Virus record (IMG/VR): IMGVR_UViG_3300028666_000026
Span: 64,001-105,391 of that record
DNA: 41,391 bases
Reading direction: 5' to 3' (one strand)
Source of the DNA: a virus
This document shows positions 1,380 to 19,942 of this stretch, one piece after another; within the stretch, counting starts at the first letter, position 1, and each line of letters opens with the position of its first letter. A program made the translations under genes and the position numbers. A model generated the notes under the pieces. The model made no database searches. It was not told the DNA's origin and saw only the letters and a list, made by a program, of their open reading frames with translations.

Positions 1380-1410
1380 CCCGTCACGTCACTGAGGAGA
1401 CCTTAGAACC

Positions 1411-2478: not shown

Positions 2479-2485
2479 CAGCTGA

Positions 2486-2507
2486 GAGACGCAAAGTAGC
2501 GCGTCTT
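2486..2507 (+). terminator. Hairpin after capsid gene (GAGACGC-loop-GCGTCTT); possible partial terminator or attenuator
   Basis: 7-bp stem with a G-U wobble, seen in sequence 8 nt after the capsid stop. No strong U-tract. Confidence 0.25.
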
Positions 2508-2620
2508 CAACAAGGTTGCGCGAGCCGGGAGCAGTGGTGTCGTTAAGCTGCTCCTTGCCAGCCGGACCTGCCACGTCCCGGCTTGCGTGACACATCACAC
2601 AGAAGCAAGGAGAACTGCAT

Positions 2621-2977
2621 ATGACACTGCAACTGCATTGCAAACGTTCCAAGATTTTTCATCACAGTGATGGCGAGCGCGAAATCAGCGTTTCCGCTGC
2701 GCGCGGCGAAGTCACACCTGTGCCCGACTGGGTCAAGGATACCCTTGGCTACAGAATGGGTTTGAAGGACAAGTCCATTGTGGACCTGACGCCGCCCAAA
2801 CACGTGGAAGCCACGGAAGAGGCTCCAGCGCACACAGAGGCGTCTGTGGAAGACGTAGGCTCTGATGATCCTGACGGCAGCGGCGAGCAGGCACCAGAGG
2901 ATGCGAAGCCCAAGGCACAGCGCTCCAACGTGCCCAAGGGTCTGCAGGGCGCAAGCACGGTAGTCAAGACCAAGTAG
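2621..2977 (+). CDS. Hypothetical protein (118 aa, acidic C-terminal half)
   Basis: AAGGAGAA SD 5 nt upstream of the ATG. Lies within the head module. Confidence 0.5.
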   Translation: MTLQLHCKRSKIFHHSDGEREISVSAARGEVTPVPDWVKDTLGYRMGLKDKSIVDLTPPKHVEATEEAPAHTEASVEDVGSDDPDGSGEQAPEDAKPKAQRSNVPKGLQGASTVVKTK

Positions 2978-2993
2978 TAGGAGGCACCTTAAG

Positions 2994-3989
2994 ATGTGTT
3001 CACCCGGCAGCGGACTGATACCCAACTTCAATGCGTGGCTACAAACGGCGTGGGGTGCAGGCGCGGAATTTTGGTCCGCTGGTCCGGCAGGTTTCTTTGG
3101 TAGTGCTACCAATCTGGTATTTGGCACTAACCCGCCGTATTACCTGGACAACTTCTTAGCCTTCTATCCAAAGTTCTTTGGCGCAGCTACTTCCTTTATT
3201 GGCGTGACGACAGTGGCTGGCAGCAACCAGGCTACGTTCTTGTCGGTTACTGGATTGCAGCTAGGGCAGTTCGTAATAAGCTCTGATTTTCCGCCGGGCA
3301 CGGTTATCATCGGCATTAGTAGCCTCAACGTGACGTTCAACAACAATGCACTGACTAACGATAACAATGCCGTGTTCCAGGCTTACTTAGCACCAGTAGT
3401 GCCTGTTGCCGTAATCACGCTGTATCTGAATTTGGCCAATGCCTCGCTGGTACAATGCCGGTGGCAAGAAGAGTGGACTGTGGCCATGGGCTGGTTTATC
3501 GCCCACTACTTGACACTCTATGCGCGCAGTGATGCCGCAGAAGTACTCACTATAGCTACGTCAGCCATTCATGGCGAAATACCTGCCGGCACAAAGCCTG
3601 GTACCACATTCACGCTGAGCGCGGCACCTACCAACGGCACGTTGCAGGGCTACTACAAGAACGGAGTATTTCAGACTCCAGGCGTAGACTACACACTTGC
3701 CGGCAACGTCATCACCACTGCCGTTACAGTACTGACCACTGACAATCTGTACGCCACCTGGCCGATCAACAGCACGACCACGTCTGCCGTAACCTATTCG
3801 GCAGCACAAGTGGCGGCGCAGGGTATAGCCAACGGTATTATGACCAGCAAGTCCGTGGGCGACGTCAGCGCTTCGTACAACGTGCTGGAGTCTCTCAAAG
3901 AGTTCGGCCAATGGAATCTTACACTCTACGGCCAGCAGCTGGCCACCATGGCCAAGGTAATTGGAAGTGGACCAATGGTGATCTGGTGA
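2994..3989 (+). CDS. DUF4054-like head-tail connector/neck protein carrying an inserted ~40-aa YKNG-PGVDYT module
   Basis: AGGAGG SD. C-terminal SVGDVSASY...W.LTLYGQQL motif and AHYLTLY motif resemble the DUF4054 family. Positioned after the capsid gene. Confidence 0.4.
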   Translation: MCSPGSGLIPNFNAWLQTAWGAGAEFWSAGPAGFFGSATNLVFGTNPPYYLDNFLAFYPKFFGAATSFIGVTTVAGSNQATFLSVTGLQLGQFVISSDFPPGTVIIGISSLNVTFNNNALTNDNNAVFQAYLAPVVPVAVITLYLNLANASLVQCRWQEEWTVAMGWFIAHYLTLYARSDAAEVLTIATSAIHGEIPAGTKPGTTFTLSAAPTNGTLQGYYKNGVFQTPGVDYTLAGNVITTAVTVLTTDNLYATWPINSTTTSAVTYSAAQVAAQGIANGIMTSKSVGDVSASYNVLESLKEFGQWNLTLYGQQLATMAKVIGSGPMVIW

Positions 3990-4543
3990 GCGGTCCTGAG
4001 ATCATCCTTGGTCGCAAGTCCGGCGCGGCGGCACTGGACGCTAGGCTTAAGACGCTGAGTAAGCTGGTGGCATACGTGGGTGTGCCAGCCTCGAGCAGTC
4101 GCTCGCGTAAGACTCAGCTACTTAGCATGGCAACTGCTGCCAAGGGCACTAAGAAGCGCAAACGTCTTGAGAAGGCAGCAGAGTCTGACTTGAACAATGC
4201 CGAGACACTGTTCCTGCTTAGCAAGGGCAGTCCACTGCGCAATCAACCGCCGCGTCCAGTGTTGGAGCCTGCCATACAGGCCGAAGGCAATAGGCAAGGC
4301 ATCGCTGCCGAGTTGGCGCAAAGTGTCAAAGCTAACCTGGCTGGCGATAAAGCTGCGTCGATGAAGAGTATGCAGCGTGCGGCCTTGGCAGGGCAGAATG
4401 CGGCACGCAAATGGTTCACCGACCCACGTAATAACTGGGCACCTAACGCGCCGTCGACGATAGCACGTAAAGGTAGCGATCGTCCTGGTATAGATACTGG
4501 TGCAACACGCGCAGCAATTGTGGGAATCGTGGGCGAAGAATGA
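3986..4543 (+). CDS. Hypothetical basic virion/neck protein (185 aa), GTG start
   Basis: GTG at 3986 overlaps the upstream TGA (GTGA coupling). The ORF-track start at 3911 would overlap the upstream gene by 79 nt. Confidence 0.4.
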   Translation: MSGPEIILGRKSGAAALDARLKTLSKLVAYVGVPASSSRSRKTQLLSMATAAKGTKKRKRLEKAAESDLNNAETLFLLSKGSPLRNQPPRPVLEPAIQAEGNRQGIAAELAQSVKANLAGDKAASMKSMQRAALAGQNAARKWFTDPRNNWAPNAPSTIARKGSDRPGIDTGATRAAIVGIVGEE

Positions 4544-4698
4544 CATTGGATATAGGTGTTCGTGTTCGGTTGGTGGGTCAATCGCATGCAATCTATCACG
4601 TGTCGGTTGTTGAAGAGCACGATGGTTTAGTCTTCTATCGTTTACGAGAACTACGCGGCGCATTATTTCTGGCTTCATCACTGGAGGTTGTGGAGTGA
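4540..4698 (+). CDS. Small protein (52 aa, MTLDIGVRVRLVGQSHAIYHVSVVEEHDGLVFYRLRELRGALFLASSLEVVE); not in the ORF track
   Basis: ATG overlaps the upstream TGA (ATGA) and its TGA overlaps the downstream GTG start (GTGA). It fills an otherwise 150-nt gap. Beta-rich, SH3/KOW-like pattern. Confidence 0.4.
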   Translation: MTLDIGVRVRLVGQSHAIYHVSVVEEHDGLVFYRLRELRGALFLASSLEVVE

Positions 4699-5201
4699 GC
4701 ACAAAAGTTACGTCTGTACAGCTAGTCAACTCCACTATAGACTCTACCGTCATAGGCGGAACTTCTCCGGTTGCCGGCACTTTCACTACGCTCACTGCTA
4801 TAGACGTTGAGTCCAACATTGGAAATTTCAGCGCTACGTTGGAGGGGCCTACAGTAGCCTCTAGCGATAACAGCACTAGCGCGGCCACTACGGCGTGGGC
4901 AAAATTTGGCTTCGCAGTTTCGGCTGCTGCTAACGGATATATCAAACTCCCCACCTGGCTGGGCGGCATCGTCATTCAGTGGGGCAATGCGACACCTGGT
5001 GATCTTAGTGTCGGGTCCGGTAGTACGGTGACGTTCCCACTGGCATTTCCCACAGCTTGCTTTGCAGTAGTGGCCAACATGAATAACAACATAGGCACAA
5101 ACATTCGTACACTGAGCTGCTACAGTCAAACTGCCAGTAACTTTTTATTGGGAGCCAACGGTTCGGCTTCTACTGCCACCTGGATAGCAGTGGGGCACTA
5201 G
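4695..5201 (+). CDS. Stand-alone tail-fibre distal-tip domain protein (gp53-like C-terminal domain)
   Basis: Motifs GYIKLPTWLGGIVIQWGNAT, VTFPLAFPTACFAVVAN and WIAVGH match the conserved C-terminal knob found on many phage tail fibres. GTG start is coupled to the upstream small ORF. Confidence 0.5.
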   Translation: MSTKVTSVQLVNSTIDSTVIGGTSPVAGTFTTLTAIDVESNIGNFSATLEGPTVASSDNSTSAATTAWAKFGFAVSAAANGYIKLPTWLGGIVIQWGNATPGDLSVGSGSTVTFPLAFPTACFAVVANMNNNIGTNIRTLSCYSQTASNFLLGANGSASTATWIAVGH

Positions 5202-5202
5202 C

Positions 5203-5790
5203 ATGATCGATATGTCAGACGTTGTCGCCGACGAGGAGCTGGCTGCGCCCAAACCGTTTGTGATACTGCGCGCTAGCAGTCAGTGGACACAGAATGGGCT
5301 TGTCACCACCACAGTGTCAATTCCGCAGGTGGGCCCTGTGCAGCGCGCTTCGGCCAAAGAAGTGCAGATGTTGCCCGAAGCCGATCGTGTTGAGTCAGTC
5401 ATGGCTTTTTGGTGCCTCATTCCTGTGTTGACTGTACGCGGTAAAGATCCTGCCACAGCTGTGCAAGGCGTACAACCGCAAGGCGTGTTCCCTGGCTATG
5501 TCTACACAATAGACCCAGGGCCTGTCGGCACTTCGCAGCCAACGCTTTACAAGAACGGGCTGTTTCAAATACCTGGTGTTGACTACACTTACGCTGCTGG
5601 CATGATTACGATGACGGTGGAGACGCTTGACACTGACACGCTCTATCTGACTTATGTCACCAACACGGCTGGCGCGGCAGTTAGCGACGTGATTCAGTAT
5701 GAGTTAGAGCAGTACCGCGTACTCAGTTCAAAACATTATCCCGGAAGCGGGTTTTGGCGCGCTCTTGGCACACGACTGAGTACCATATGA
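5203..5790 (+). CDS. Head-tail adaptor/joining-like protein with a C-terminal YKNG-PGVDYT module
   Basis: The N-terminal half (QMLPEADRVESVMAFWCLIPV) resembles the head-tail joining family. The C-terminal ~40 aa repeats a motif seen in two other virion proteins. Confidence 0.4.
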   Translation: MIDMSDVVADEELAAPKPFVILRASSQWTQNGLVTTTVSIPQVGPVQRASAKEVQMLPEADRVESVMAFWCLIPVLTVRGKDPATAVQGVQPQGVFPGYVYTIDPGPVGTSQPTLYKNGLFQIPGVDYTYAAGMITMTVETLDTDTLYLTYVTNTAGAAVSDVIQYELEQYRVLSSKHYPGSGFWRALGTRLSTI

Positions 5791-6062
5791 AGCTGTGCAA
5801 GTTCGAAGAAGACATGTACGGCTTCGAGTGCCCTGGGTGTGGTCACACGCACATTATAACAGTCAACGGTAGACGAAATAGTTGTGACGCATCATGGACG
5901 TGGAACGGCAGTATGACAGCGCCCACATTCACGCCGTCCATCAATGTTGTAGGCTACTGTCACTCATTTGTAACTGATGGGCGCATTCAATTTTTGTCTG
6001 ACTGTGTACACAAGCTAGCTGGCCAGACTGTGGATATACCAGAATGGGGGTTTGCCGAGTGA
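5787..6062 (+). CDS. Small zinc-ribbon protein (91 aa; CPGCGHTH ... CHSF ... CVH)
   Basis: ATG at 5787 overlaps the upstream TGA (ATGA). Cys/His pairs spaced like a zinc ribbon. Confidence 0.45.
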   Translation: MKLCKFEEDMYGFECPGCGHTHIITVNGRRNSCDASWTWNGSMTAPTFTPSINVVGYCHSFVTDGRIQFLSDCVHKLAGQTVDIPEWGFAE

Positions 6063-6688
6063 GTACAGCAACTATACTGCCCAACGGGCAGACGCTTACT
6101 TCCATCGCACTCACTCCAAAGGTAATCAATGCACTGATGCTCCAGCTGACCTGTGGAATGCTGGGCATCAATCCGCCAGACTACTCACAAGTGCGCGATG
6201 CTTGGCAAACTCAGGGGCAACCTTTCCAAGATGTAAATACCGACATTTGCTACGTCGCCTGCGTGCCAGAAAATGTTGATTATCGGCTTGTACGCGATCG
6301 TACCTACACGACCATTCCGGCTGGCGGCGGCTTGCCAGAACGAGTTCAAGAAACCTGGACCTACACGCGCGGTTGGCGCGTGACCTGGACACTGTATGGA
6401 CCTAATTCTACTGATCGTGCTCGCATGGTTCACAGTGCGCTGTTCATGGATTATTTTAACGACCAGCTCAATCTTTCTAGTCTATTCCCGGTGTCGGACC
6501 CGCCTGAAATCATTCGTATGCCGGAGAACATGAATGCGCAATGGTTTGAGCGCGCCGAGTTCCATGTAATCATGTACGAGAATGTCACGGAAACCATCAT
6601 CGATGGCATCGTCACCAGTGTTGAAGTAAAGGTGTACGATGCTTCACCCAGTGACCCTGTTGCAGACTTCACGGTAGTAAAGCCATAA
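6059..6688 (+). CDS. Hypothetical tail/neck protein (209 aa), GTG start
   Basis: GTG at 6059 overlaps the upstream TGA (GTGA). Immediately precedes the sheath gene. An alternative ATG exists at 6044. Confidence 0.4.
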   Translation: MSTATILPNGQTLTSIALTPKVINALMLQLTCGMLGINPPDYSQVRDAWQTQGQPFQDVNTDICYVACVPENVDYRLVRDRTYTTIPAGGGLPERVQETWTYTRGWRVTWTLYGPNSTDRARMVHSALFMDYFNDQLNLSSLFPVSDPPEIIRMPENMNAQWFERAEFHVIMYENVTETIIDGIVTSVEVKVYDASPSDPVADFTVVKP

Positions 6689-6710
6689 GGCTATAAAGGA
6701 GCCACACAAC

Positions 6711-8105
6711 ATGCCCACACCACCTCTAAGTCTGAGCGACATTGTCAACATTTCAGTGACTGTGGCTCCGGCAGCGGCTACCGCCAACCCGTTTAACCAA
6801 GGCTTGTTTGTCGGTAGTTCCACGATAATTCCAAGCTACGGTGCCAACTCGCGCATTCGCCAGTACTCGGCCAATACATTCAGCGCCGCCATGCTCACGG
6901 ATGGTTTTACCAGCAACAGTCCGGAGTATATCGCCATGCAGATATACTTCAGTCAGACGCCACAACCTTCATTTGGGTGGGTTGGTCGACAGGACTTGAC
7001 GGCAATCAAGACGGCCATTCCGCACAGTGGAAATGCTGGTACTGGTTACGTCGTCGGAGATCAGGTCACGGTCACACAGGTGGGCGGTAGCAATGGCATA
7101 CTTACCGTGCTCACCATCAGCGGCGGCGGAGTGGTGGCTACACTCGGCACCACCATCGGCAATCAAGGCACAGGCTACGCCACGGCCACTGGTCTGGCTA
7201 CTACGGGCGGCACCGGCACTGGTTTAGAAGTGGATATCACAGCCATCGGTGAATCACTTCTGCAAGCGGCTGAAGCCTGCCGTATTGCTGACAGTACCTG
7301 GTATGGGCTGACTGTGTATAACCCGGCGGATGCTGACAACCTTGCTCTGGCTGAGTGGGCTGATCCGTTGTGGGAATCTACGCGTTACTACACTTGGAGT
7401 AGTGACGTAGCCATTGCCAATGGCACTACCAACAACTTGGCGCTTCAACTGCAAACTCTGAAGCTGCGCACGCTCGGTGTGTACTCCACTACGCAAGGTG
7501 GATTGTACCCCAACAATATCTACGCCGCAGTTGCAGTGATGGGCGTGGAAATGGGCAGCAATACTGGGCTGGCCGGCAGCTTCTTCACTATCGCGCACAA
7601 ACAGCTGGCTGGCATTTCTGTAGAGCCGCTGACACAGACTCAGTACACCAACATCACCAATGCCAGTTTCAATGCGTACTGTAACTTCAGTCCGTATCAA
7701 CTGTTCGAGCCTGGCTTCTTGAGTAATGGCTCGCCCAGCTACCTCTGGTTGTTTTTGGCTGTGTTGGTAGCTAATCTGCAGATTGAGGAAATCAACGTTC
7801 TGGAGTCTTACCAGGCCGTGCCGCAGACTAATGCGGGGCAGCAGTTACTCATTGGCGGTGCCAACGCGGCCTGCTCCCTACTCGCTGACATCGGCTTCTT
7901 GTCGGGCGCTATATGGGAAGGCGCTCCGGTGCTCAACTTGGCCACGGGTCAGGCACTTCCACTCGGCTACTTGAATCAGTCGGCACCTTACGCACAACAG
8001 TCTTCGGGCGACCGCGCAGCCGGCAAGGCCATGCCAATTTACTGCACAATAACCACGGCTGGCGCAGTGCAGTCTTTGGCTATCGCCGTTTACACGCAAC
8101 TGTAG
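6711..8105 (+). CDS. Tail sheath protein (464 aa)
   Basis: AAGGAG SD. Size and position immediately upstream of a ~150-aa tube-like ORF, a chaperone with frameshift and a tape-measure gene. N-terminal LSDIVNISVTV-type start is typical of DUF3383-like sheaths. Confidence 0.55.
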   Translation: MPTPPLSLSDIVNISVTVAPAAATANPFNQGLFVGSSTIIPSYGANSRIRQYSANTFSAAMLTDGFTSNSPEYIAMQIYFSQTPQPSFGWVGRQDLTAIKTAIPHSGNAGTGYVVGDQVTVTQVGGSNGILTVLTISGGGVVATLGTTIGNQGTGYATATGLATTGGTGTGLEVDITAIGESLLQAAEACRIADSTWYGLTVYNPADADNLALAEWADPLWESTRYYTWSSDVAIANGTTNNLALQLQTLKLRTLGVYSTTQGGLYPNNIYAAVAVMGVEMGSNTGLAGSFFTIAHKQLAGISVEPLTQTQYTNITNASFNAYCNFSPYQLFEPGFLSNGSPSYLWLFLAVLVANLQIEEINVLESYQAVPQTNAGQQLLIGGANAACSLLADIGFLSGAIWEGAPVLNLATGQALPLGYLNQSAPYAQQSSGDRAAGKAMPIYCTITTAGAVQSLAIAVYTQL

Positions 8106-8118
8106 AAGAGGAGAGTAC

Positions 8119-8580
8119 ATGCCAGGCTCTGTGGGCACGACGTATTCGTTCAAAGACCTTGTGGGCGCGCTTACGAACACTGTGTTCGGTGTGTCGTTCT
8201 CACTCAGTGGTGGTAATGTTGGCTTTGGCTCACTCACCATTGTCATGCAAACTGCGCGTACTGCGCATGACGTTGCCGCTGATGGCACCGTCATGCCCAG
8301 CTACATAGCCGGTGATAACGGTGAGCTGACCATTGAGTTGCAACAGACTTCTGTGTTGCACCACCAGTTACTCAACTTGTACAATCTTTGTGTGGCGGCT
8401 GCCAACAATGACGACGTCAGTGGCTGGGCCAGCACGGCGCTTGCCTTTCGTACGTTGCTAGACGGCAGCACGCATATTGCTACCGGCGTCAGCTTCGACA
8501 AGGTGCCTGATAAGCCATACCATGCCAGCGGACAGAAAGTTACCTGGAAGCTGATGGCGGCTAACATCATCAACCAATAG
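8119..8580 (+). CDS. Tail tube protein (153 aa)
   Basis: GAGGAGAG SD. Sits between the sheath and chaperone genes. Confidence 0.5.
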   Translation: MPGSVGTTYSFKDLVGALTNTVFGVSFSLSGGNVGFGSLTIVMQTARTAHDVAADGTVMPSYIAGDNGELTIELQQTSVLHHQLLNLYNLCVAAANNDDVSGWASTALAFRTLLDGSTHIATGVSFDKVPDKPYHASGQKVTWKLMAANIINQ

Positions 8581-8608
8581 CATCATCGGTGCAAGGACCG
8601 ATACCATT

Positions 8609-9067
8609 ATGAAGACAAAACCAGTTGAAGTTAGTGGGCGCAGCTACTTGTTGCGTCGTATGGCTCCGGTTTCTGGCAGCTACATTTACATGCGCATGAT
8701 GGGCGCTATGATGGAGCGTGTTGCCGCTGCTGCAAACGTGGAGGAGGTACGCAAGTCGGCTGATGTGCAACTTGAGGCCAATCCTGAAGAGCGTGCGCGA
8801 CTGTTAATCTCGCTGACATTCATGCAAGGTCTGTCACTAGCCGACATGCAATTCGCGCACAGAGAAGCGCTGCTTGTAGCCAGCGAGGCTGAGCACTCCA
8901 TACCCGTCATGGCAGCTGATGGGCGGTGGGCTGACCCAACACTGGAGGAAGACCCGCGCGCTGTGCATGACTTAGTGGTGGAGTCGCTGGTATTCAGCCT
9001 TGCACCGTTTTTCGTACAGAGCGGGTCAACTACGGCAGATGGGAAGCCAGCGGCTACGAACCTGTAG
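8609..9067 (+). CDS. Tail assembly chaperone (gpG-like), probable -1 frameshift partner downstream
   Basis: Positioned between the tube and tape-measure genes. The -1 frame stays open from 8971 to 9249 and is protein-like. Confidence 0.5.
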   Translation: MKTKPVEVSGRSYLLRRMAPVSGSYIYMRMMGAMMERVAAAANVEEVRKSADVQLEANPEERARLLISLTFMQGLSLADMQFAHREALLVASEAEHSIPVMAADGRWADPTLEEDPRAVHDLVVESLVFSLAPFFVQSGSTTADGKPAATNL

Positions 9068-9249
9068 CCTTTCCCACGCTGAACCCGCTCGTGTGGCGGC
9101 CAGTGGGCGCTGGCCTCTGGCGACATCACGAAACGTTTGATGGCACGTACGACTGCGGTGATTTGGCTGACGTACTTGAGTTCCTGGACACCAAAGAAGA
9201 GAACGAACTGAGATACCGCGAGGCCGTAGAGCATGCCAAACATTCTTGA
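8971..9249 (+). other. Candidate -1 programmed frameshift extension of the tail chaperone (gpGT-like). Possible slippery site G_TTT_TTC at 9007-9013
   Basis: The -1 frame is open across the chaperone 3' end, ending with TGA at 9247-9249 (EPVAFPTLNPLVWRPVGAGLWRHHETFDGTYDCGDLADVLEFLDTKEENELRYREAVEHAKHS). Confidence 0.35.
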
Positions 9250-10879
9250 CGAGTATCTTGTAAAGCTGGGCGCTACTGTAGACGCGGCTGGGTTCGCACG
9301 CTTCCATCAGGCTCTACGCGAAGCTAACATGGCCGTGACCGCAAACGTCACTGACATGGCCAAGGCGCTGTTCAAGGCCCAGGCAGAGATAGTCGGTGGT
9401 TTTGCTGCCATTGGCGGCGCGGCGCTTGGACTGGCTGACAAAGTCGCAATGGCTGACCAGGAGTACAGACTTTTCGCCCTGCACATGTTCATGTCCAAGG
9501 ATGCGGCACGCAGTCTGAAGGTGGCCATGGACGCGCTTGGCCAGCCTCTGGAGAATTTGTGGTGGGACCCGGAGTTGGCGGCTCGTACGCGGCAGTTGAT
9601 CGCTGATCAAAAGGCGATGGCTCCGGACGGCGACTTTGAAGCCCAGATGCTTAAGATTCGCGATGTACGCTTCGAGTTCACGCGTATGGGTGTGGAAGCG
9701 CAGTATCTTGGCATGCACGTTATTCAGGACTTCATGAAGGCCCTGGGTATGGGCCCAGATGACTTATTGACCAAACTGCGCGAGTTCAACAACTGGGTCA
9801 CAACACATCTACCAGAGATATCAAGGTGGGTAGTCACCAACTTCCTGCCCATTTGGCGCGACGTTGAAATGATCTTCAAAGACATAGCCATTACAGTGCG
9901 CGACTTTGCGACATTGTTTGACAACGTCATTGCGCTGTTCAGCGGCGATGGTACTTTGAAGGGCGTGGCCACATTCGATAAGTTTGCGCGTTCGGTGGAG
10001 AAGGTTGTACACGCACTGGCCATGGTTGCAGATTTCTTGGTCAAGATAGAAGGTCTGATCACTGGAGCCATTGGCGGTGGCAGCTTAGGCGGCATGATAG
10101 GTTCCATTGCAGGCGGTATAGCTGGCATACCTGCGGGACCAGCTGGTATTGCTGCCGGCATAATTGGCGGCGGTGCTACGGGGACAGCCATTGGTGGTGG
10201 TATCGGCGCTGCTTCTGGCGGCGTATTTGACTTGCTCAGACATTACAAAGTCGGGCCTTGGGCCGACAACGGTCAGAGCAACGCTATTGCAGGATTGATG
10301 GGCGGACCTGCTGCTGACGGCGTCGACGCGAATGCTGTGGCACAGCAAGCTATACTGCTAGCACAGCAAGTCTCAGACAAGACTGGTGTACGTGCAGATT
10401 TGTTGTGGTCCCAGTGGGCGCATGAAACCGGCGGTTTCACACACATCGCTGCCGCAAATAATTTGGCTGGTATAAATGTTCCTGGTGGCAATGGTTCGCA
10501 GTATAGATCATTTAACTCTTTGAGTGATTTTGGTGACTACTACGCTGGTATGGTGTCACGTAATTTTCCTGACTTGAAACGCGCAACTAACGCAGATCAG
10601 TTTGCCAGTATTCTTAAAAATTCGGGTAGACTAGGCGCGTACTACACAGGCCCTGAAAGTGCCTATGCTGGCGGCATGTCTAGGTTTGACAATGCATACA
10701 ATAGTGCAGGTGGCGGCGATGTGCACATTGGTTCTATCGTTGTGCACATAGACAAACCTGGTGCGACCAACGAGCACGTCGGAGAAGTGATCGCAAATAA
10801 AATTCAGCAAACGCAGAGTAAGCGCGTTCAGCGAAACTTGGCCGAGTTCCAAGACTTGTCTTACGGCTATGGAGGCTAA
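9233..10879 (+). CDS. Tape measure protein with Gly-zipper hydrophobic core and a C-terminal FlgJ-like glucosaminidase (peptidoglycan hydrolase) domain
   Basis: Follows the chaperone gene. Contains the GAIGGGSLGGMIGSIAGGIAGIPAGPAGIAAGIIGGGATGTAIGGGIGAASGG segment. WSQWAHETGGF...NNLAGIN...YRSFNSLSDFGDYYAGMV...YYTGPESAYAGGM matches Glucosaminidase-domain motifs. Confidence 0.6.
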   Translation: MPNILDEYLVKLGATVDAAGFARFHQALREANMAVTANVTDMAKALFKAQAEIVGGFAAIGGAALGLADKVAMADQEYRLFALHMFMSKDAARSLKVAMDALGQPLENLWWDPELAARTRQLIADQKAMAPDGDFEAQMLKIRDVRFEFTRMGVEAQYLGMHVIQDFMKALGMGPDDLLTKLREFNNWVTTHLPEISRWVVTNFLPIWRDVEMIFKDIAITVRDFATLFDNVIALFSGDGTLKGVATFDKFARSVEKVVHALAMVADFLVKIEGLITGAIGGGSLGGMIGSIAGGIAGIPAGPAGIAAGIIGGGATGTAIGGGIGAASGGVFDLLRHYKVGPWADNGQSNAIAGLMGGPAADGVDANAVAQQAILLAQQVSDKTGVRADLLWSQWAHETGGFTHIAAANNLAGINVPGGNGSQYRSFNSLSDFGDYYAGMVSRNFPDLKRATNADQFASILKNSGRLGAYYTGPESAYAGGMSRFDNAYNSAGGGDVHIGSIVVHIDKPGATNEHVGEVIANKIQQTQSKRVQRNLAEFQDLSYGYGG

Positions 10880-10882
10880 GTA

Positions 10883-11746
10883 ATGGCTATTTGGCGTCCT
10901 CCTCAATGGCAACAACCGGCCATGGTATCCATCACTGTGCCAGCATCGTCGGCACAACAGGCTCAGTCTACCACGCAAACCGCTGTGGGTGCCAGCACAC
11001 CTACCAGTGTCAGTCTGGGCATGTCAAATGTGGCCACGCAGTCAGCTTCGGCGGCCACTCCACCAACTACATACGTGTTTGATGCTGTGCTGAAGTTAAG
11101 CCACGACCAACGGCTAGAGAAGACTCGGCACCCAGTACAGACCGGAGCCGACCTTAGTAGCCATGCGTATTTGATGCCGGCTCGACTCACAATGAGCATT
11201 GGCATGTCCGATGCCATGGACGCCTATGCAGCCAGCTACAGCAGCACGCAGCCGCCGTACATCACGCCGTTCACCGGCAACCCTTCCAAGAGTGTGGCCG
11301 CGTATCAGCAAATGTTATCATTTCAAGCGCAGCGTATACCGCTGACAGTCACAACTCGTTTGCGCACGTACACCAACATGTTGGTTGTTGGCGTTGAGCC
11401 GGAAGAAGATCATCGCACCATATCTGGACTACGTATGCGCGTAGAGCTGGAGCAGATCTTTACAGCCTCGATAGCTTCTGTACCAACGAGTACCAGAACC
11501 AATGATACAGCTAGTACTGGTCTTGGCGTGGTAAACCCTCAAACACCTGACGCAACTACCATCAATCAGTATGGCATAGACCAACTCAGTAGTCAGGTTG
11601 TTGATTTGACAGATACAACCTCTGTAGCGTCTAACAACATGGCTGACTGGTTGGATACAAATCCAGGTGGTGTGGATGTGCCTGGTGCTGGGCTGTTTTC
11701 TAGTGTGAATACCAACAATCTGCAACAGCTACCTGCGCCGGAGTAA
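10883..11746 (+). CDS. Tail/baseplate protein (287 aa; XkdP/Mu gp43-position protein)
   Basis: GGAGG SD. Positioned between the tape-measure and hub genes. Confidence 0.4.
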   Translation: MAIWRPPQWQQPAMVSITVPASSAQQAQSTTQTAVGASTPTSVSLGMSNVATQSASAATPPTTYVFDAVLKLSHDQRLEKTRHPVQTGADLSSHAYLMPARLTMSIGMSDAMDAYAASYSSTQPPYITPFTGNPSKSVAAYQQMLSFQAQRIPLTVTTRLRTYTNMLVVGVEPEEDHRTISGLRMRVELEQIFTASIASVPTSTRTNDTASTGLGVVNPQTPDATTINQYGIDQLSSQVVDLTDTTSVASNNMADWLDTNPGGVDVPGAGLFSSVNTNNLQQLPAPE

Positions 11747-11755
11747 GGTCGTTAA

Positions 11756-12091
11756 ATGGCCAACCAAACTATACCGCTTACCAATTCGCCCAATCAAACG
11801 TTCCAGATACAACTGGTGGTAAACGGCAATCCGTTGACACTTGCCATTGCACTGTCTTACTCTGAAATGGCTGGTCACTGGCAGATGCAGGTCATAGATG
11901 TCAACGGCAATGTGTTGATAGCCTCGGTGCCGTTGATAACTGGTTGGTACCCAGCGGCAAACATTTTGGCACAGTATCAGTATTTGAACATTGGCAGTGC
12001 GTACGTACTCAACACTGGCAATGCCACTACTGACTCGCCAGGTCCGAATAATCTCAACCAGTTCACACTGCTTTGGGGCGACAATGTCTAG
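11756..12091 (+). CDS. Small baseplate-associated protein (111 aa)
   Basis: Conserved small gene preceding the hub. Its stop overlaps the next start (ATGTCTAG). Confidence 0.4.
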   Translation: MANQTIPLTNSPNQTFQIQLVVNGNPLTLAIALSYSEMAGHWQMQVIDVNGNVLIASVPLITGWYPAANILAQYQYLNIGSAYVLNTGNATTDSPGPNNLNQFTLLWGDNV

Positions 12092-13136
12092 CACTTCCAA
12101 CATACCTCTGTGGGGCCAAGCATATGAGTTGACCGTAACCTACGCGCAGCCTAACAGCGAGCCCACGACGGTCACACTGTCTAGTAATGCTTGGGAGCCG
12201 GAAGCGCTGCGTATAAAGTTTGAAGTGTTGCAGAGCACGCTACCGTCGCCTTGGTGGTTTGCCGATATAACGGTGTATAACCTCAATAAACCAGAGCGTG
12301 CCAACGCATTGCAGTATGCAACCTGGGTAGAGTTAAAAGCTGGCTTCCAAACTGGACCATCCAAATCAACCATCATTTGGAACGGTCCGGTGATGCAGAC
12401 CATTCTTACTCGAGAAAATGTTGTGGACATTGGCATAACATTCCATTGCGTGGCCAATCCTTTTGCAATGGAAAGTATTATCAGCTTTTCTTCGGGGCCG
12501 TATAGTAGTCAAGCGCAACTGTTAGTACAAATGTCCAACGCAATAGGTTTGCCAGAGGTGTCTGCTACCAATGGTACGGTGGGACAGGCTGCATCAACGG
12601 CACTGGACGCTAAGAAGTATCTGCGTGGCAATACTGTGTTCGGTAAAATGGGTAAGTACATTTTGCAGATTGCCAACGATCAGTTTATGCAAACTTGGCG
12701 CGATGGACAAAAAGCGTACATAACCAACTTGAGCAACCCAGACCTCACTCCTTTTGTCACCTACAGTCCGCCGTACCCACCCGGCGTGCCTGTGCCGCCT
12801 CTTTCCGGAGACACTACGTTCAGTCTTATTGGCACGCCGCAGCAGACACCACAAGGCGTCATATTCACGGTACTACTGGACCCCAGGCTCAGCGTAGTGC
12901 TACCGCCAAAAGTGGTGCAGTTGAAGCGTACAGTAGTGAATGTTATAACAGTTTCGCCGGGCGGCGGCGTAGCTACGCCACTGAGTAGCGATTTGAAATT
13001 ATTGGTTTCGCAGGTTAGACATGTCGGCGATTCGCGCGGCAACGATTGGTATACAGAAGTGACTGGTGTGAGCACCACTTACGCACAAAGTATGTTGGAC
13101 GGCGTGTTCGGTGCTACAGCAGCTGGAGGTAACTAG
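12084..13136 (+). CDS. Baseplate hub protein (P2 gpD/Mu gp44-like), 350 aa
   Basis: Start at ATG 12084 overlaps the upstream stop (the ORF-track start at 11991 would overlap by 100 nt). Size and position match gpD-like late control/hub proteins. Confidence 0.5.
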   Translation: MSSTSNIPLWGQAYELTVTYAQPNSEPTTVTLSSNAWEPEALRIKFEVLQSTLPSPWWFADITVYNLNKPERANALQYATWVELKAGFQTGPSKSTIIWNGPVMQTILTRENVVDIGITFHCVANPFAMESIISFSSGPYSSQAQLLVQMSNAIGLPEVSATNGTVGQAASTALDAKKYLRGNTVFGKMGKYILQIANDQFMQTWRDGQKAYITNLSNPDLTPFVTYSPPYPPGVPVPPLSGDTTFSLIGTPQQTPQGVIFTVLLDPRLSVVLPPKVVQLKRTVVNVITVSPGGGVATPLSSDLKLLVSQVRHVGDSRGNDWYTEVTGVSTTYAQSMLDGVFGATAAGGN

Positions 13137-13862
13137 GTGTCTTCGACAACCACCGCGCTGCCGCCTTTCAGTCCTACGCAGGTGAACGCAGCCGAGAGCG
13201 CGCAGTGGCGTCAGATTGTAAGCCAGTCATTGACAGACGCACGCATGGCCGTACCAGCCTTCTTAGTGAAGGATATGGATGAGGCCACACAGACTGTCAG
13301 CGTGCAGATTGCCATCCAGGAACAGGTAAAGACGCCTGACAAGGGCGCACAGTGGTGGGATGTACCGCCTATAAATATGGTGCCCATCATAATTCCACGC
13401 GCTGGCGGCTTCTGTTTGACTTTGCCCATGCTGAAGGGCGTAGAAGGCTTGCTGATTTTCTGTGACAACTGTTTTGATTTTTGGTGGAAGTACGGACAAA
13501 ATAATGCGCCAACTGCTGCTAACATAGTTGCAGCCGCAAAGGCTGCAGGCACTACGCCGCAACCTAGCGGCAGTCAAATACAGCTGGAAGTGCGCAGGCA
13601 CCATGTGCATGATTGCGGCTTTCTGCCTGGTATGTACAGTCAGCCAAACATATTGCCCAACTACTCGCAAAATTCTGCTCAGTTGCGCACTGATGACGGC
13701 TCTGTCAGCATTGACCTATCACCGTCCGGTATTATCCTGACAGCGCCGTTGGTGCGGGTGACGGAGAACCTGGAAGTTGGCAACGGGGCCACCGGCAGCT
13801 TCACTACTCCTACAGGGCAGGTAGTTACTGTACAGGACGGGATCATAACCAACATTTACTGA
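13137..13862 (+). CDS. Baseplate spike protein (gpV/Mu gp45-like)
   Basis: GTG start directly after the upstream TAG. OB-fold-like N-part (VPAFLVKDMDEATQTVSVQ...VPIIIPRAGGFCLTLPMLKGVEGLLIFCD) typical of gpV/gp138-type spikes. Confidence 0.5.
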   Translation: MSSTTTALPPFSPTQVNAAESAQWRQIVSQSLTDARMAVPAFLVKDMDEATQTVSVQIAIQEQVKTPDKGAQWWDVPPINMVPIIIPRAGGFCLTLPMLKGVEGLLIFCDNCFDFWWKYGQNNAPTAANIVAAAKAAGTTPQPSGSQIQLEVRRHHVHDCGFLPGMYSQPNILPNYSQNSAQLRTDDGSVSIDLSPSGIILTAPLVRVTENLEVGNGATGSFTTPTGQVVTVQDGIITNIY

Positions 13863-13872
13863 GGGCCGCCAG

Positions 13873-14217
13873 ATGATTCCGCAGGGAACTTCGCTAGTCA
13901 ATGCTGCTTTCTTCACGGCGTCTGTAGACGCTGTAAATGCCGCGACATCTTGCGCAGCATTGAATGCGGCGTCCAGCGATGCCGTAGCCTCTCTAGAAGC
14001 TGAGATAACAACGGTCACGGCGCAAATATCATTGCTGGCTCCGTTAATTGTGTCTCCAACAGATTTGCCTTCGGTGCTGACTTGGATTGGCAGTGTTATA
14101 GCTCCCATGGTAACGACGCACACCAACTGTATCGCGCAGTTGGCAGAACTAAATACAAGGCTCACCACATTAACGGCTGCCATAGCAGCTAAGTCAGCTT
14201 CTTTGGGGTGCCCATAA
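13873..14217 (+). CDS. Hypothetical Ala/Thr-rich baseplate protein (114 aa; possible spike-tip or accessory)
   Basis: GAGGG SD. Sits between the spike and W-like genes. Confidence 0.4.
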   Translation: MIPQGTSLVNAAFFTASVDAVNAATSCAALNAASSDAVASLEAEITTVTAQISLLAPLIVSPTDLPSVLTWIGSVIAPMVTTHTNCIAQLAELNTRLTTLTAAIAAKSASLGCP

Positions 14218-14609
14218 TGGCCGCTGCACCTACCATTACGTATCTGCTGCTGGATGCGCAGTATGATCCGGTGTTCGAGCCACAAGTTTCGCTAACAAAT
14301 GCGCAAGCAGTAAGTCAGGCTATTTTGACTCGGCTGCGTTTATTTCTTGGTGAGTGGTGGGAAGATTTGAATTTAGGCTTGCCTGTCTTTCAGCAAATGC
14401 TGGGGCAGCCAGGCAACAATCGCGTACAAGCAGCCATGAATCTAGCTATTCAAAGGCAGATTGAGGGCGTGCCATATGTTACGCAGGTCAACAACATAAC
14501 ATCACAATTCACGGCTGGCAAGTTTTCCTTTACTGCATCTGTGCAGACTGCTTTCGGCGTGATAGTTGTGAACAACGTACCGGGCTTGCAGGCCAGTTTG
14601 GACACATAA
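14217..14609 (+). CDS. Baseplate wedge protein (gpW/gp25-like), 130 aa
   Basis: ATG at 14217 overlaps the upstream TAA (TAATG). LGEWWEDLNLGLPVF motif and a size of ~130 aa match W/gp25-like proteins. Lies upstream of the J-like gene. Confidence 0.45.
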   Translation: MAAAPTITYLLLDAQYDPVFEPQVSLTNAQAVSQAILTRLRLFLGEWWEDLNLGLPVFQQMLGQPGNNRVQAAMNLAIQRQIEGVPYVTQVNNITSQFTAGKFSFTASVQTAFGVIVVNNVPGLQASLDT

Positions 14610-14612
14610 GAT

Positions 14613-16037
14613 ATGTCAATTCCGCCTTACGCACCGGCCAGTGTCGGACCTGCAGGACTGCAAATCAGCACGTACCAATCAATTCTGCAGGACAATCTTC
14701 AGGCTTACCTCAACATATTTGGCGCTAATCAATACATAGCGCCAGACTCAGCAATTTATCAGTTACTCTCCATTCTCTCGTTGAAGCAGTCTGACTGCAA
14801 CCTTGGTCTGTTGCTGGCGTACAACCAGAGTAGTCCGCAGACAGCTGTCGGCGCTGGGCTGGATCGCACGGTGAAGTTGAATGGCTTGGCGCGTGCGCCG
14901 TTTACATACTCCATAGCAGTACTCACACTCGTTGGCGTGGCAACACCGCCCACGGTACTCAACAATTGCTTTGCCCAGGACAGCAATGGCAATTTGTGGG
15001 CTATCCCCAGTGGAACCACATTTGTTACAGGCACCATCAATGTAACGGCTACATGCACCACGCCTGGTAATGTCACAGCTGAACCGGGTGCAATCAACAT
15101 CGTAGCGACGCCCACGTTGGGTTGGACTAGTGTTATCAATATAGCACCAGCCACAGCCGGCAACCCGGTAGAGACTGACAGTCAGCTGCGCGCGCGTCAA
15201 TCTATCAGCGTTGCGCGGCCTTCGCTCACCACATTGCAGTCCACTATCGCCGATGTGCTAGCCGTCACCGGCGTGACTCGTATAAACCCTGGCACGCCCA
15301 CTCCAGGTGGACCTGGCACTTCCATTGAGAATCCTACTGGCGCTGTGGATTACTGGGGCAACCCACCGCACAGCATCAGCATGGTGGTGGAGGGCGGCGC
15401 TGATTTAGACGTAGCCACTGCTATCTACATCGCTCGTGGCATAGGCTGCTTTACTAATGGCACCACATCTGTGCCAGTGGTCGACGCCAATAGTGGTTAC
15501 ACAATGAATATCAGCTTCTTCAGACCGACCTATTTGCCGATCGCGGTGTTTCTCACGGTAATACCTCTGGCCGGTTACACGTCGGCAACCAAGACGGCCA
15601 TTCAATCGGGAATAGTGAATTACCTGAACAGCCTTTCCATCGGCGAGAATGTGGTGTACAGTGAATTGTATGGCGCGGCCCTTACGGCGCGGCCCAACCC
15701 CGATCAACCACTGTTCTCCATTACAGCTTTGACTAGCGGAGCATTGGCTGCGCAGCCCCAAGCCGCACTTGTTGGCGGCAACCCTGTAGTGACGGTAACC
15801 TCAGCCGCTGGCATTGCCGTAGGGCAGTTTGTGCGTGACGAAACCACGCCTGGACACTTCCCAGTTGGCACAACGGTGTCTAACGTGGCTGGCACTAGCA
15901 TTACACTTTCCAACGTTGCTGCGGTCACAGTGCCTGCCGACACGCTGTCTTTCTTCACCATGGGCAACACAGATATAACGGTGCCGTACACCAACGTCGC
16001 CAAAGGTGTGCCCAATGATGTGGTGGTGACGCCATGA
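14613..16037 (+). CDS. Baseplate J-like protein (P2 gpJ/Mu gp47/XkdT-like), 474 aa
   Basis: Size and position between the W-like and I-like genes. N-terminal MSIPPYAPASVGPAGLQISTYQSI... Confidence 0.5.
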   Translation: MSIPPYAPASVGPAGLQISTYQSILQDNLQAYLNIFGANQYIAPDSAIYQLLSILSLKQSDCNLGLLLAYNQSSPQTAVGAGLDRTVKLNGLARAPFTYSIAVLTLVGVATPPTVLNNCFAQDSNGNLWAIPSGTTFVTGTINVTATCTTPGNVTAEPGAINIVATPTLGWTSVINIAPATAGNPVETDSQLRARQSISVARPSLTTLQSTIADVLAVTGVTRINPGTPTPGGPGTSIENPTGAVDYWGNPPHSISMVVEGGADLDVATAIYIARGIGCFTNGTTSVPVVDANSGYTMNISFFRPTYLPIAVFLTVIPLAGYTSATKTAIQSGIVNYLNSLSIGENVVYSELYGAALTARPNPDQPLFSITALTSGALAAQPQAALVGGNPVVTVTSAAGIAVGQFVRDETTPGHFPVGTTVSNVAGTSITLSNVAAVTVPADTLSFFTMGNTDITVPYTNVAKGVPNDVVVTP

Positions 16038-16669
16038 TTCCCAATCCGGCTTACGGTGTAACCGGGTATGGACTAGGCGGTTATGGCAATCAGCCCATCG
16101 AATCTTTGCCACTTGGGTACTACCTAGCACTGCTGACCTCGGAGTACAGACAAAATTCACCGAAGCTGAACGCTTTGTTGTATGTGCTGCTTCGCAAATT
16201 TGATGATGTGACCACTTGTCTGGTGAAGCTGGACACGGCTCTGGATCTGGACAGCGCCATGGGAGCACAGCTAGATCAGATAGGCGAAGTAGTACAGGCT
16301 TTGCGCACAGTTGGCTTTCAGCCTAGCGGCGGTGTTAGTCCTGTGCTGGATGATGACACGTATCGGCTCTACATCAAGGCTAAGATAGCACGCAATCAAT
16401 GGAACGGCCAGATAGATAGTCTGTATACGATTTGGAAGCAATTGTTCCCTGCCGGCACGATTGTCATTGAGGATAATCAGAATATGTCAGTGAACATTTT
16501 GCTGACGGGTGCGTTTTCTTCCATCATCCAGGACCTGATAACCAATGGTTACATAATTCCCAGGCCGGAGGGCGTACTGTACAACTACATATTCGGTGTG
16601 CTACCGCTGTTTGGCTTCGATCAAGCGCCGGGATTCATAGACGGCTTCGACGTTGGTCACTGGGCCTGA
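16034..16669 (+). CDS. Tail protein I-like (P2 gpI/Mu gp48/XkdU, DUF2313-like), 211 aa
   Basis: ATGA overlap with the J-like gene. Conserved position and size. Confidence 0.5.
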   Translation: MIPNPAYGVTGYGLGGYGNQPIESLPLGYYLALLTSEYRQNSPKLNALLYVLLRKFDDVTTCLVKLDTALDLDSAMGAQLDQIGEVVQALRTVGFQPSGGVSPVLDDDTYRLYIKAKIARNQWNGQIDSLYTIWKQLFPAGTIVIEDNQNMSVNILLTGAFSSIIQDLITNGYIIPRPEGVLYNYIFGVLPLFGFDQAPGFIDGFDVGHWA

Positions 16670-16678
16670 GGAGGCTAG

Positions 16679-17245
16679 ATGTCATCAACTAACATGCAGC
16701 AGTGGAACCCCACTGCCACTAATCAAGAGTCTGACGCGGCGTACACAGCGGACTCACAACGAGCTGGCGGGGCCACAAACCCCTCCATCTTCGCGTCCAT
16801 ACTGGCCAACAAGGCGTTCTTCCAATTCAGCACTTACCTAACAGCGTTGTTTACAGCCTTTGCGAATAAAGGCTTCGCAACTAGCGATGCCTCGCTAGCT
16901 ACTCTGACCGCGCAGTGCGCTAATTTTCTTACCACGGCTGACGTTCATGCCGGTTTACAATACGTGCCATTTTCGCCGACGTTGGCGTTTGCGTGTGCCA
17001 GCTACGATGGGTTCCAGGTAACTCTTACTGGCAATCTTACGTTCTCACTGTCTTCGCCAAGTATCGGACAAAAGATAACGCTGGCATTCACGCAGGATGC
17101 TACTGGTGGTCGCACAGTCACCTGGCCTGGCAATGTTGTCGGCCATGGCACTATTGATGGCACCGCCAACGCAACTAGTCAGCAGCTATTTGAAGTGCTG
17201 AATGACAATCTGCTGCACCCACTCGGCGTAATGACGGTGAGCTAA
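16679..17245 (+). CDS. Tail fibre-associated protein (188 aa)
   Basis: GAGGAGG SD. Immediately downstream of the baseplate wedge genes. Confidence 0.4.
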   Translation: MSSTNMQQWNPTATNQESDAAYTADSQRAGGATNPSIFASILANKAFFQFSTYLTALFTAFANKGFATSDASLATLTAQCANFLTTADVHAGLQYVPFSPTLAFACASYDGFQVTLTGNLTFSLSSPSIGQKITLAFTQDATGGRTVTWPGNVVGHGTIDGTANATSQQLFEVLNDNLLHPLGVMTVS

Positions 17246-17247
17246 CC

Positions 17248-17646
17248 ATGGCTGGCGAGACTACGACACCGAACATTGGATTGCAGATACCGGCCTTCGA
17301 TCAAGCCAACTGGCAGGTTCCAACCAATTTCAATTGGGCATTGCTGGATAAGATTTTTGGCGGTGAGATTCAGGTTCCAGCGCTCAGCGTGATAACACTG
17401 ACGGCAGTAAACTTTGAATTGCCCAGCGTAATCGCCACCATAGCTACGGCGTTCACGGTTGAGTCCGGCACATTTGTGTCTGGGACCACCTACCAATTCA
17501 GCCACATACCGATTGTTATGTTTGGTGTGTACGTCAATGGCGTTTGGCAGCGACCGGGCGTGGATTACACGTCAGCTGGAAATCAAATCACGCTTGCTTA
17601 CACCTTGCTCAGCGGAGATACACTGTATGCGACTTACCTTCACTAA
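17248..17646 (+). CDS. Tail fibre N-terminal/collar-like protein with a C-terminal YVNG-PGVDYT module (132 aa)
   Basis: TPNIGLQIPAFDQANWQVPTNFNWALLDKIFGG resembles conserved tail-fibre N-termini. The C-terminal module is shared with the genes at 2994 and 5203. Confidence 0.45.
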   Translation: MAGETTTPNIGLQIPAFDQANWQVPTNFNWALLDKIFGGEIQVPALSVITLTAVNFELPSVIATIATAFTVESGTFVSGTTYQFSHIPIVMFGVYVNGVWQRPGVDYTSAGNQITLAYTLLSGDTLYATYLH

Positions 17647-17695
17647 AGCAATCCTGGCAGGGCTCTTGATAACGCTGAGTTGTGTAGCTGGTGCG
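17627..17695 (+). other. Predicted Sec signal peptide (cleavage after AGA)
   Basis: Basic n-region, 14-residue hydrophobic core, AXA site. Confidence 0.45.
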
Positions 17696-19876: not shown

Positions 19877-19942
19877 GTGAAAATACTGTTGAAGTGTGCG
19901 CTGCTGAGTGTACTCTGCCTTCTCCCTACTACAGTTGTGGCC
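19877..19942 (+). other. Predicted Sec signal peptide (VVA-QT)
   Basis: MKILLK n-region, Leu-rich h-region, AXA cleavage motif. Confidence 0.5.

Follow-up and report, generated by a model that had tools for sequence, protein, structure and literature searches.

An uncultured contractile-tailed phage, represented here by a DNA stretch of 41,391 nucleotides (the window), encodes two neck proteins and one fibre-like protein in which the same short motif appears to recur. The question raised by this locus is whether the recurrence marks a genuine domain, what such a domain is related to, and what it would do at both ends of a tail. Twenty kilobases of the window gave no match to GenBank phages in a megablast search.

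One all-β domain in three virion proteins

The window contains three in-frame copies of one all-β domain, common to three virion proteins. The genes, the copies of the module and the conserved 37-aa core within each copy are:

2994–3989, plus strand: gene A, a 331-aa portal (head-to-tail) adaptor of the DUF4054/E217_gp27 family
3552–3773, plus strand: module copy A, aa 187–260 of gene A (leave-out HMM E 1.4e-27)
3651–3761: 37-aa core A, aa 220–256 of the open reading frame 2994–3989
5203–5790, plus strand: gene B, a 195-aa head-closure/collar (stopper-fold) neck protein, phrog_939, with the module in a loop
5449–5676, plus strand: module copy B, aa 83–158 of gene B (leave-out HMM E 7.5e-20)
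5545–5655: 37-aa core B, aa 115–151 of the open reading frame 5203–5790
17248–17646, plus strand: gene C, a 132-aa fibre-like protein encoded directly after the baseplate genes
17431–17643, plus strand: module copy C, aa 62–132 of gene C (leave-out HMM E 2.1e-19)
17527–17637: 37-aa core C, aa 94–130 of the open reading frame 17248–17646

Pairwise BLASTP with composition adjustment gives 62 bits for A–B, 54 bits for A–C and 41 bits for B–C, with 51% identity across 71 aa between A and C. A profile HMM based on 53 homologues of other origin, with the window sequences left out, returned the three copies as its sole matches among 785 stop-to-stop segments in six frames, and even at E ≤ 10 there was no further copy in the window. 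These scores bear out the recurrence in three virion proteins proposed in the initial annotation, as well as its view of a shared mobile module as opposed to compositional likeness. The length assigned there, about 40 aa, has to be revised: the similarity of the three copies runs on upstream of the core, so that the domain comprises approximately 70–75 aa. Of the nucleotide ranges first given, that of the third copy is in frame, whereas 3641–3765 and 5543–5658 are out of frame and yield stops or nonsense when translated. Similarly, the C-terminal position ascribed to all three copies holds for copy C, whereas copies A and B are internal loop insertions.

That the three proteins have no true domain in common, the resemblance being compositional, a chance motif, the result of recent duplication or an assembly artefact, could be argued from the richness of the proteins in T, G, V and A and from the shortness of the conserved core. 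This reading is refuted, and retains practically no probability, in view of the composition-adjusted BLASTP scores, the independent profile that finds these three segments only (E ≤ 2.1e-19), the confident common fold predicted by AF2, the presence of copies at the same sites in orthologues on many contigs, and the absence of a repeat at the DNA level. The copies are 34–43% identical to one another and show no similarity in nucleotide sequence, which excludes both a recent intragenomic duplication and an assembly artefact; recent duplication is further disfavoured by a between-protein identity (34–40%) that is near the between-orthologue identity (42–51%). Given this divergence and their retention in orthologues, the copies are old.

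Insertion of the module into neck-ring proteins

The product of gene A has an N-terminal extension of approximately 130 aa and carries the module in the middle of its conserved domain. The Pfam match to DUF4054 (52.6 bits; cut-off 23.9) is broken into two stretches, and when aa 187–260 are excised in silico, DUF4054 is matched as a single stretch covering profile positions 9–105 of 105. A profile of 30 homologues of A matches E217 gp27 (8fvh_N, E 0.005) and the XM1 head completion protein. E217 gp27 has the role of portal adaptor, and the counterparts of A and B form adjacent rings in homologous necks (PMC10329688). Protein B, which lies below the adaptor, has the small β-barrel head-closure/stopper/collar fold of solved neck proteins (Pam3 connector, Pa193 collar). 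The adaptor label that had been given to B thus belongs to A, of the E217 gp27 family, and B is the head-closure/collar protein. The genes for adaptor, Neck1, collar, terminator and sheath follow one another as they do in relatives without the module. The solved neck homologues (E217 gp27 adaptor and gp28 collar, Pa193 collar, Pam3 connector and XM1 head completion proteins; 155 aa and 110–132 aa) are all module-free and, unlike A and B, contain no inserted jellyroll.

The module is found at the same site in A in 120 of the 120 best homologues, and orthologues of A carry one, three or four copies. In B, the module is a clean presence/absence polymorphism: orthologues of 118–120 aa (L015–L019, L026–L027) lack exactly the module segment and have near-identical flanks. 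The module is an accessory part: each host fold is complete in its absence, some natural orthologues of the collar are without it, and its copy number varies among orthologues of the adaptor. Phages whose B is devoid of the module retain one copy in A, and B keeps a single copy in a phage whose A has three. Since A copy number and B show no compensating covariation, an arrangement of six triads, each of two A modules and one B module, is unsupported. The module can thus be inserted into loops of neck-ring proteins, and the natural presence/absence and copy-number variants would be suitable as ready-made experimental controls.

In some genomes, no two modules are as alike as those of A and B (55–56% identity in L002 and L022), and several B modules end in W.QWP, as is typical of A. 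This shared ending suggests that the module of B was copied from that of A. A Gp53-like_C gene, a candidate neck fibre, lies among the neck genes of the window (4695–5201). Co-occurrence of the B module with this gene is unsupported: Gp53-like_C is encoded there in the window and, of the relatives that bear the module, in L002 alone; in L022–L024, B carries the module and no gene occupies the corresponding position.

Fold and structural relatives

The AF2 model of the module (pLDDT 96.4) contains six to seven strands, and the β-sandwich fold anticipated in the initial annotation is recovered, by model and structural matches alike, as a jellyroll. The module is an autonomous β-jellyroll of the same structural class as the T4 gp10-like XD2/XD3 domains of branched tailspike complexes, which are β-jellyrolls of approximately 60–70 aa, and its best structural matches are phage XD domains, not carbohydrate-binding modules. 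The module profile matches TSP2 (6w4q) with a whole-chain E of 0.0023, with weak stretches in XD2 (38–80) and XD3 (112–153), and weakly matches residues 203–244 of TSP4 (XD2; E 0.07–0.09); T4 gp10 was not recovered in the profile search.

XD2/XD3 domains are found in CBA120 TSP4 and TSP2, G7C gp66, RaK2 gp528 and the T4 baseplate protein gp10. Both they and the T4 gp10 domains form trimeric platforms onto which other trimers dock, and have adjacent N- and C-terminal strands (PMC8825819); the same XD domains are used in RaK2 fibre branching (PMC10253068). Like XD2/XD3, the module occurs singly or in tandem within virion proteins. The two differ, however, in position, XD domains belonging to the N-terminal assembly region of trimeric fibres whereas copies A and B are internal in neck-ring proteins and copy C is C-terminal, and their sequence similarity is marginal.

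The DUF4183 domains of spore fibres are more distant structural relatives. DUF4183 (PF13799) matches copy C with 13.8 bits (E 0.051), below the gathering cut-off of 25.1 bits, and has no Pfam match in copies A and B; some relatives exceed the cut-off (P0027, 41.7 bits; P0037, 41.5; P0005, 34.5), and matches ranging from weak to significant are present in 14 of 56 family members. In F-ENA endospore fibres, DUF4183 serves as both subunit and anchor domain, and its trimers, among them a triad formed by a single chain, dock further F-ENA trimers (PMC12357932). As described, it is bacterial (Bacillota spores) and polymerises via an N-terminal hook, of which the module shows no sign. CBM_X2 (PF03442; gathering cut-off 28.9 bits), the Ig-like X2 module of cellulosomal scaffoldins, does not match the window copies. 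Its matches to 14 of the 56 family members and to several multi-copy orthologues of A centre on the NG..Q.PG.DYT core and for the most part fall short of the curated cut-off. Oligomerisation, docking and carbohydrate binding, the candidate roles put forward in the initial annotation, correspond to those of the nearest characterised relatives (XD2–XD3 of CBA120 and T4 gp10, DUF4183, and the weak CBM_X2 match).

The module family and protein C

The initial annotation had proposed an HMM search of phage proteomes. An exhaustive HMMER search revealed a large family, with 1784 cluster representatives at E ≤ 1e-3 across many virion protein classes; a word-indexed search with a three-copy profile gave nothing. 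Its members are mostly fibre-like phage proteins with the modules in tandem; two or three module copies are present in 120 of 148 family proteins, and in 112 of the 148 (76%) the modules end at the C-terminus. The module is a known promiscuous building block of phage virion proteins, and what is new is its placement in neck-ring proteins. To call its presence in both head-side and tail-side proteins unusual is, as regards kind, an overstatement; its insertion into neck-ring proteins is what is uncommon. The family, approximately 1800 representatives tied to XD2/XD3 docking domains and DUF4183, is only marginally captured by Pfam, and the link helps to annotate many fibre-like proteins now listed as hypothetical.

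Protein C consists of a conserved N-terminal motif of approximately 50 aa (TPNIGLQIPAFNQANWQVPTN.NW.LLD) followed by the module as its C-terminal half. Orthologues are encoded at the same position in L012, L017, L020, L022 and L023, and members of the C family carry one or two modules (P0095, P0113, P0118, P0145). The module region of C matches the tail-fibre families phrog_2710 and phrog_18673. The N-terminal motif, sought in the other open reading frames of the window as a shared fibre anchor, was present in none of them. The genes neighbouring C encode polysaccharide-active proteins, i.e., a 1520-aa GH10 protein with CHB_HEX_C and a protein with a weak GDSL match.

Proposed role of the module

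The first and last strands of the jellyroll are adjacent, which makes the domain insertable in a surface loop, and it should therefore project from the neck exterior. By analogy with its characterised relatives, the module is most probably a protein–protein contact piece, and the overall explanation that we favour is that the jellyroll acts as an outward docking or self-association knob on the adaptor, the collar and protein C; we consider the chances of this explanation being correct to be evenly balanced, and glycan adhesion to be its main rival. Approximately 12 adaptor knobs and approximately six collar knobs would form a crown around the neck, with a further knob at the tip of C. The modules would self-associate in small, typically threefold, clusters, and the cluster face would dock another trimeric virion protein. 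Protein C would represent a minimal fibre adaptor at the baseplate, composed of anchor plus platform, while the neck copies would constitute a mounting or bracing collar. Several findings weigh against docking. The characterised XD domains belong to trimeric fibres, whereas A and B form 12-fold and 6-fold rings in which threefold packing is not guaranteed; most family modules are at the distal C-terminal tip, which fits binding of a ligand or host surface at least as well; and the XD2 links are weak, with the window copies falling below the curated cut-offs of DUF4183 and CBM_X2. The lack of covariation between A and B and the restricted occurrence of Gp53-like_C, described above, count against it as well. 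A more specific proposal, which we regard as unlikely, is that one set of trimeric appendages is mounted at both tail ends via the same jellyroll, so that receptor-binding or enzymatic fibres would crown the neck. The Gp53-like_C protein and the polysaccharide-active proteins encoded downstream of C would be candidates for such appendages, and module copy number (one to four in A, none or one in B) would tune the number of appendages.

Alternatively, the module could be an adhesion decoration, i.e., a weak carbohydrate- or surface-binding module on neck and fibre that has no virion partner and that keeps the virion close to host envelopes, biofilm or plant polysaccharide, with Ig-like domains and CBM_X2 as analogues. 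We see this as possible, albeit on the doubtful side. It is in agreement with the extreme C-terminal location of the modules in 76% of the family proteins, where fibres bind ligands, with a copy number as variable as is typical of accessory decorations, and with the polysaccharide-active neighbours of C. The CBM_X2 matches in 14 of 56 members and in multi-copy A orthologues point in the same direction, however, they are mostly sub-cut-off and do not extend to the window copies, and the best relatives whose function has been tested dock proteins and are not lectins. There is also a precedent in small Ig-like β-domains, which, in a 2006 account by Fraser et al., are said to be promiscuous on many head and tail positions of virions.

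It is improbable that the module is a structural brace, the neck copies making contact with one another, with the first sheath ring or with the capsid floor and serving only to stiffen the head–tail joint, and copy C only stabilising its own trimer with no external ligand or additional partner. The adjoining A and B rings of homologous necks (PMC10329688) and the close similarity of the A–B pair in L002 and L022, including the shared W.QWP ending, fit such contacts, and other phages, too, have neck proteins with small β-sandwich domains (DT57C/T5 head completion, Milano Neck1, P74-26 collar, phage 812). However, the existence of a natural clade in which B lacks the module and retains near-identical flanks indicates that bracing by B is dispensable, the three to four tandem copies in A are hard to reconcile with a fixed structural contact, and the C-terminal copies on fibre-like proteins are left unexplained. 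If the neck copies mount fibres or bind surfaces, they would offer a simple and evolvable route to neck appendages in myoviruses; if they do not, the locus is still a tidy case of domain shuffling among virion proteins.

The module invites comparison with the Ig-like domains of virions, such as those of T4 Hoc. Both are small all-β domains that are added promiscuously to head and tail proteins in variable copy number, and both are dispensable for core assembly. Unlike the Ig-like domains, the module is a jellyroll with adjacent termini, which permits loop insertion and not only terminal addition, and I-set, FN3 and Big_2 are absent from the Pfam matches of the three proteins and of 56 module sequences. 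Antibody Fab heavy chains retrieved when A alone was used as query in a single-sequence phmmer search of the PDB (E 0.016–0.035) are taken as chance or general β-strand likeness, and not as homologues.

Identification and extent of the shared module

Three ORFs of the window carry the motif Y.NG..Q.PGVDYT....IT.....L..D.LY.T[YW] in frame:

2994–3989, + strand: portal adaptor A (DUF4054/E217 gp27 family), 331 aa; module at aa 187–260, exact motif core at nt 3651–3761
5203–5790, + strand: head-closure/collar neck protein B (stopper fold), 195 aa; module at aa 83–158, core at nt 5545–5655
17248–17646, + strand: small fibre-like protein C, 132 aa; module at aa 62–132, core at nt 17527–17637

These are the three proteins named in the initial annotation, but its nucleotide ranges for A and B are out of frame. 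Pairwise BLASTP among the copies, run with composition-based statistics, scores 62, 54 and 41 bits; the corresponding E-values come from two-sequence searches, and the argument rests on the bit scores together with an independent profile. Because the alignments continue well upstream of the 40-aa core (71 aa at 51% identity for A and C), the unit comprises ~70–75 aa rather than the ~40 aa first proposed. The independent profile, built only from 53 homologues of other sources and run against every stop-to-stop segment in the six frames of the window, recovers the three copies at E-values of 1.4e-27, 7.5e-20 and 2.1e-19, and no fourth copy even at E ≤ 10. The three copies show no significant similarity in their coding DNA and so are neither a recent duplication nor a product of repeat artefacts or composition. 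The three virion proteins thus have one domain in common, beyond compositional likeness, as had been suspected.

Fold and family

AlphaFold2, applied to a 56-sequence alignment of the module, returned a very confident all-β model (pLDDT 96.4), in line with the β-sandwich fold that had been put forward for checking. The top six Foldseek matches of this model are all to TSP4, a tailspike of phage CBA120, and the fold searches concur on its jellyroll as the nearest solved structure. The sequence profile aligns weakly to TSP4 residues 203–244, within the XD2 domain (residues 189–250; PMC8825819), and to both XD domains of the CBA120 tailspike TSP2. From these model and profile matches, we assign the module to the T4-gp10-like XD2/XD3 jellyroll class, as a member or close sister. 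The strongest sequence matches to solved structures are to the Klebsiella K1 capsule depolymerase 9k4a (E 1.5e-12), whose N-terminal region has two copies in tandem, and to gp28, a fibre of cyanophage P-SCSP1u with one copy (E 1.5e-6). Pfam coverage is marginal: of 56 representative module sequences, 14 are matched by DUF4183 (PF13799, the F-ENA endospore fibre domain) and 14 by CBM_X2 (PF03442); against DUF4183 the copy in C reaches 13.8 bits, below the cut-off, and the copies in A and B match neither family. The link to DUF4183 is more distant than that to XD2/XD3.

With a three-copy profile, HMMER was run exhaustively against 1.84 billion cluster representatives and gave 1784 matches at E ≤ 1e-3, of which 184 reach E ≤ 1e-10. 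Among the 148 best-matching proteins (median length 342 aa), 120 have two or three copies, and in 112 at most 12 residues follow the last copy before the C-terminus. Their PHROG matches are to "tail fiber", "baseplate wedge" and "virion structural" families, always via the module itself.

Insertion into the adaptor and collar proteins

The module had been described as lying near or at the C-terminus in all three proteins; this holds for C, whereas in A and B it is a loop insertion. In A, the DUF4054/E217_gp27 Pfam match is broken into two stretches, and in silico removal of aa 187–260 joins them into one, covering profile positions 9–105 of 105; the phrog_302 match likewise becomes a single stretch. 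A 30-sequence profile of A matches the solved E217 adaptor gp27, a portal-bound dodecameric head-to-tail adaptor of 155 aa (PMC10329688), and the XM1 head completion protein, via the part downstream of the insert. Unlike A and B, their solved homologues in E217, Pa193, Pam3 and XM1 have no module insert. Such an insertion is structurally plausible because in the XD jellyroll the first and last strands lie next to each other. A second indel segment of A (aa ~63–130, weak phrog_5838 match) is missing from the orthologue at related locus L025.

In C, a conserved N-terminal motif of ~50 aa, which no other ORF of the window has, precedes the module, of which relatives of C have one or two copies.

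Comparison of related loci

Using the sheath protein as anchor, we retrieved 26 related loci (sheath identity 52–76%), and further loci via homologues of A. The module occupies the same site in all 120 best A homologues, nine of which have a further two or three in tandem near residue 111, for a total of three or four. C orthologues retain it wherever the locus extends far enough. B orthologues occur in a long form of 190–217 aa with the module and a short form of 118–120 aa (loci L015–L019 and L026–L027), in which the flanks align perfectly and exactly the module segment is absent. By this comparison, the module is an accessory, mobile part. Mean identity is 34–40% between modules of different proteins versus 42–51% between orthologous modules, and some B modules resemble A modules most (55–56%) and share their "W.QWP" ending, which suggests, at the sequence level, that B acquired its copy from A.

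In related loci L008 and L009 (~2000–8700), B, terminator and sheath are present, there is no recognisable A or Neck1 upstream, and ORFs of 1102 and 754 aa fill the region where these are expected. In L030 (2428–7644), an A orthologue with four modules is followed by a 1738-aa protein, itself devoid of module copies, in place of the usual Neck1-like gene.

Proposed role of the module

We favour a role as an externally displayed docking or self-association knob, because all characterised relatives are protein–protein contact modules. In TSP4 and TSP2 the XD2/XD3 domains, like their T4 gp10 equivalents, assemble into trimers, and the faces of these trimers dock other trimeric fibres (PMC8825819), RaK2 uses up to five XD-type domains for fibre branching (PMC10253068), and DUF4183 trimers, or an in-chain triad, dock F-ENA trimers (PMC12357932). 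By analogy, ~12 copies of A and ~6 of B would form a neck crown if ring stoichiometries follow E217, from which they are taken, and we infer that the inserts point outwards; C might be a minimal baseplate adaptor of the "anchor plus platform" type. A strict triad of two A modules and one B module is not supported, as copy number in A and the state of B show no compensating covariation.

The main rival to docking is that the module decorates the virion for weak adhesion or carbohydrate binding, which would fit its position at the C-terminal tip in most family members, the CBM_X2 echoes in family sequences and the plasticity of its copy number. As a third option it could be a purely structural brace, and here the naturally module-less B speaks against an essential bracing role.

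That one phage may carry promiscuous small β-domains on head and tail proteins alike is reportedly an established theme (Fraser et al. 2006), and the XD2/XD3 class is already well described. Not described in the publications found are the insertion into a portal adaptor and a head-closure/collar protein, the series of natural indels and expansions in these two proteins, and the size of the sequence family joining XD domains to DUF4183.

Genomic setting

The window lies in an uncultured phage contig (~77–105 kb), has no close nucleotide relative among the GenBank phages searched and has a GC content of 54.4%; no tRNA genes were found. Genes at 576–17646 form a myovirus structural module in the order XM1-gp53-like minor capsid protein, HK97-type major capsid protein, A, Neck1-like protein, 52-aa ORF, 168-aa protein with a Gp53-like tail-fibre C-terminal domain, B, BubE, tail terminator, sheath, tube, tape measure protein, baseplate hub and wedge proteins, and C. 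The 168-aa protein (4695–5201, + strand; PF21882, E 1e-14), encoded between Neck1 and B, may be a neck fibre or whisker. L002 is the only one of the 26 related loci with such a gene at this position, and the predicted tie to the B module is not supported, as the two do not co-occur across these loci. The BubE-family protein (PF20137; 5787–6062, + strand; 91 aa) between B and the terminator has a CPGCGH motif.

The gene after C (17627–19876, + strand) most likely starts at ATG 17627, overlapping the last codons of C; its product opens with MRLTFTKAILAGLLITLSCVAGAQQ, a signal-peptide/lipobox-like N-terminus that is odd in a virion protein, and has a weak GDSL-lipase match mid-protein. Directly downstream of the fibre/baseplate genes, a 1520-aa protein (19877–24439, + strand) begins with a domain of the GH10 (xylanase) family (E 3e-41) and, close to its C-terminus, carries three CHB_HEX_C_1/Fn3_assoc domains; it has no recognisable N-terminal fibre anchor. 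A 280-aa protein (25203–26045, + strand) gives a weak papain-like Peptidase_C1 match. On the − strand, 28004–33904 encodes a thymidine-hypermodification set comprising a YfbR-like HD 5'-deoxynucleotidase, a thymidylate-synthase-like protein, a 5-hmdU DNA kinase (PF18723, E 2e-44) and a fusion of GATase_6 with amino acid:DNA transferase (PF18724)/aGPT-Pplase3; judging from these genes, the phage DNA probably contains hypermodified thymine.
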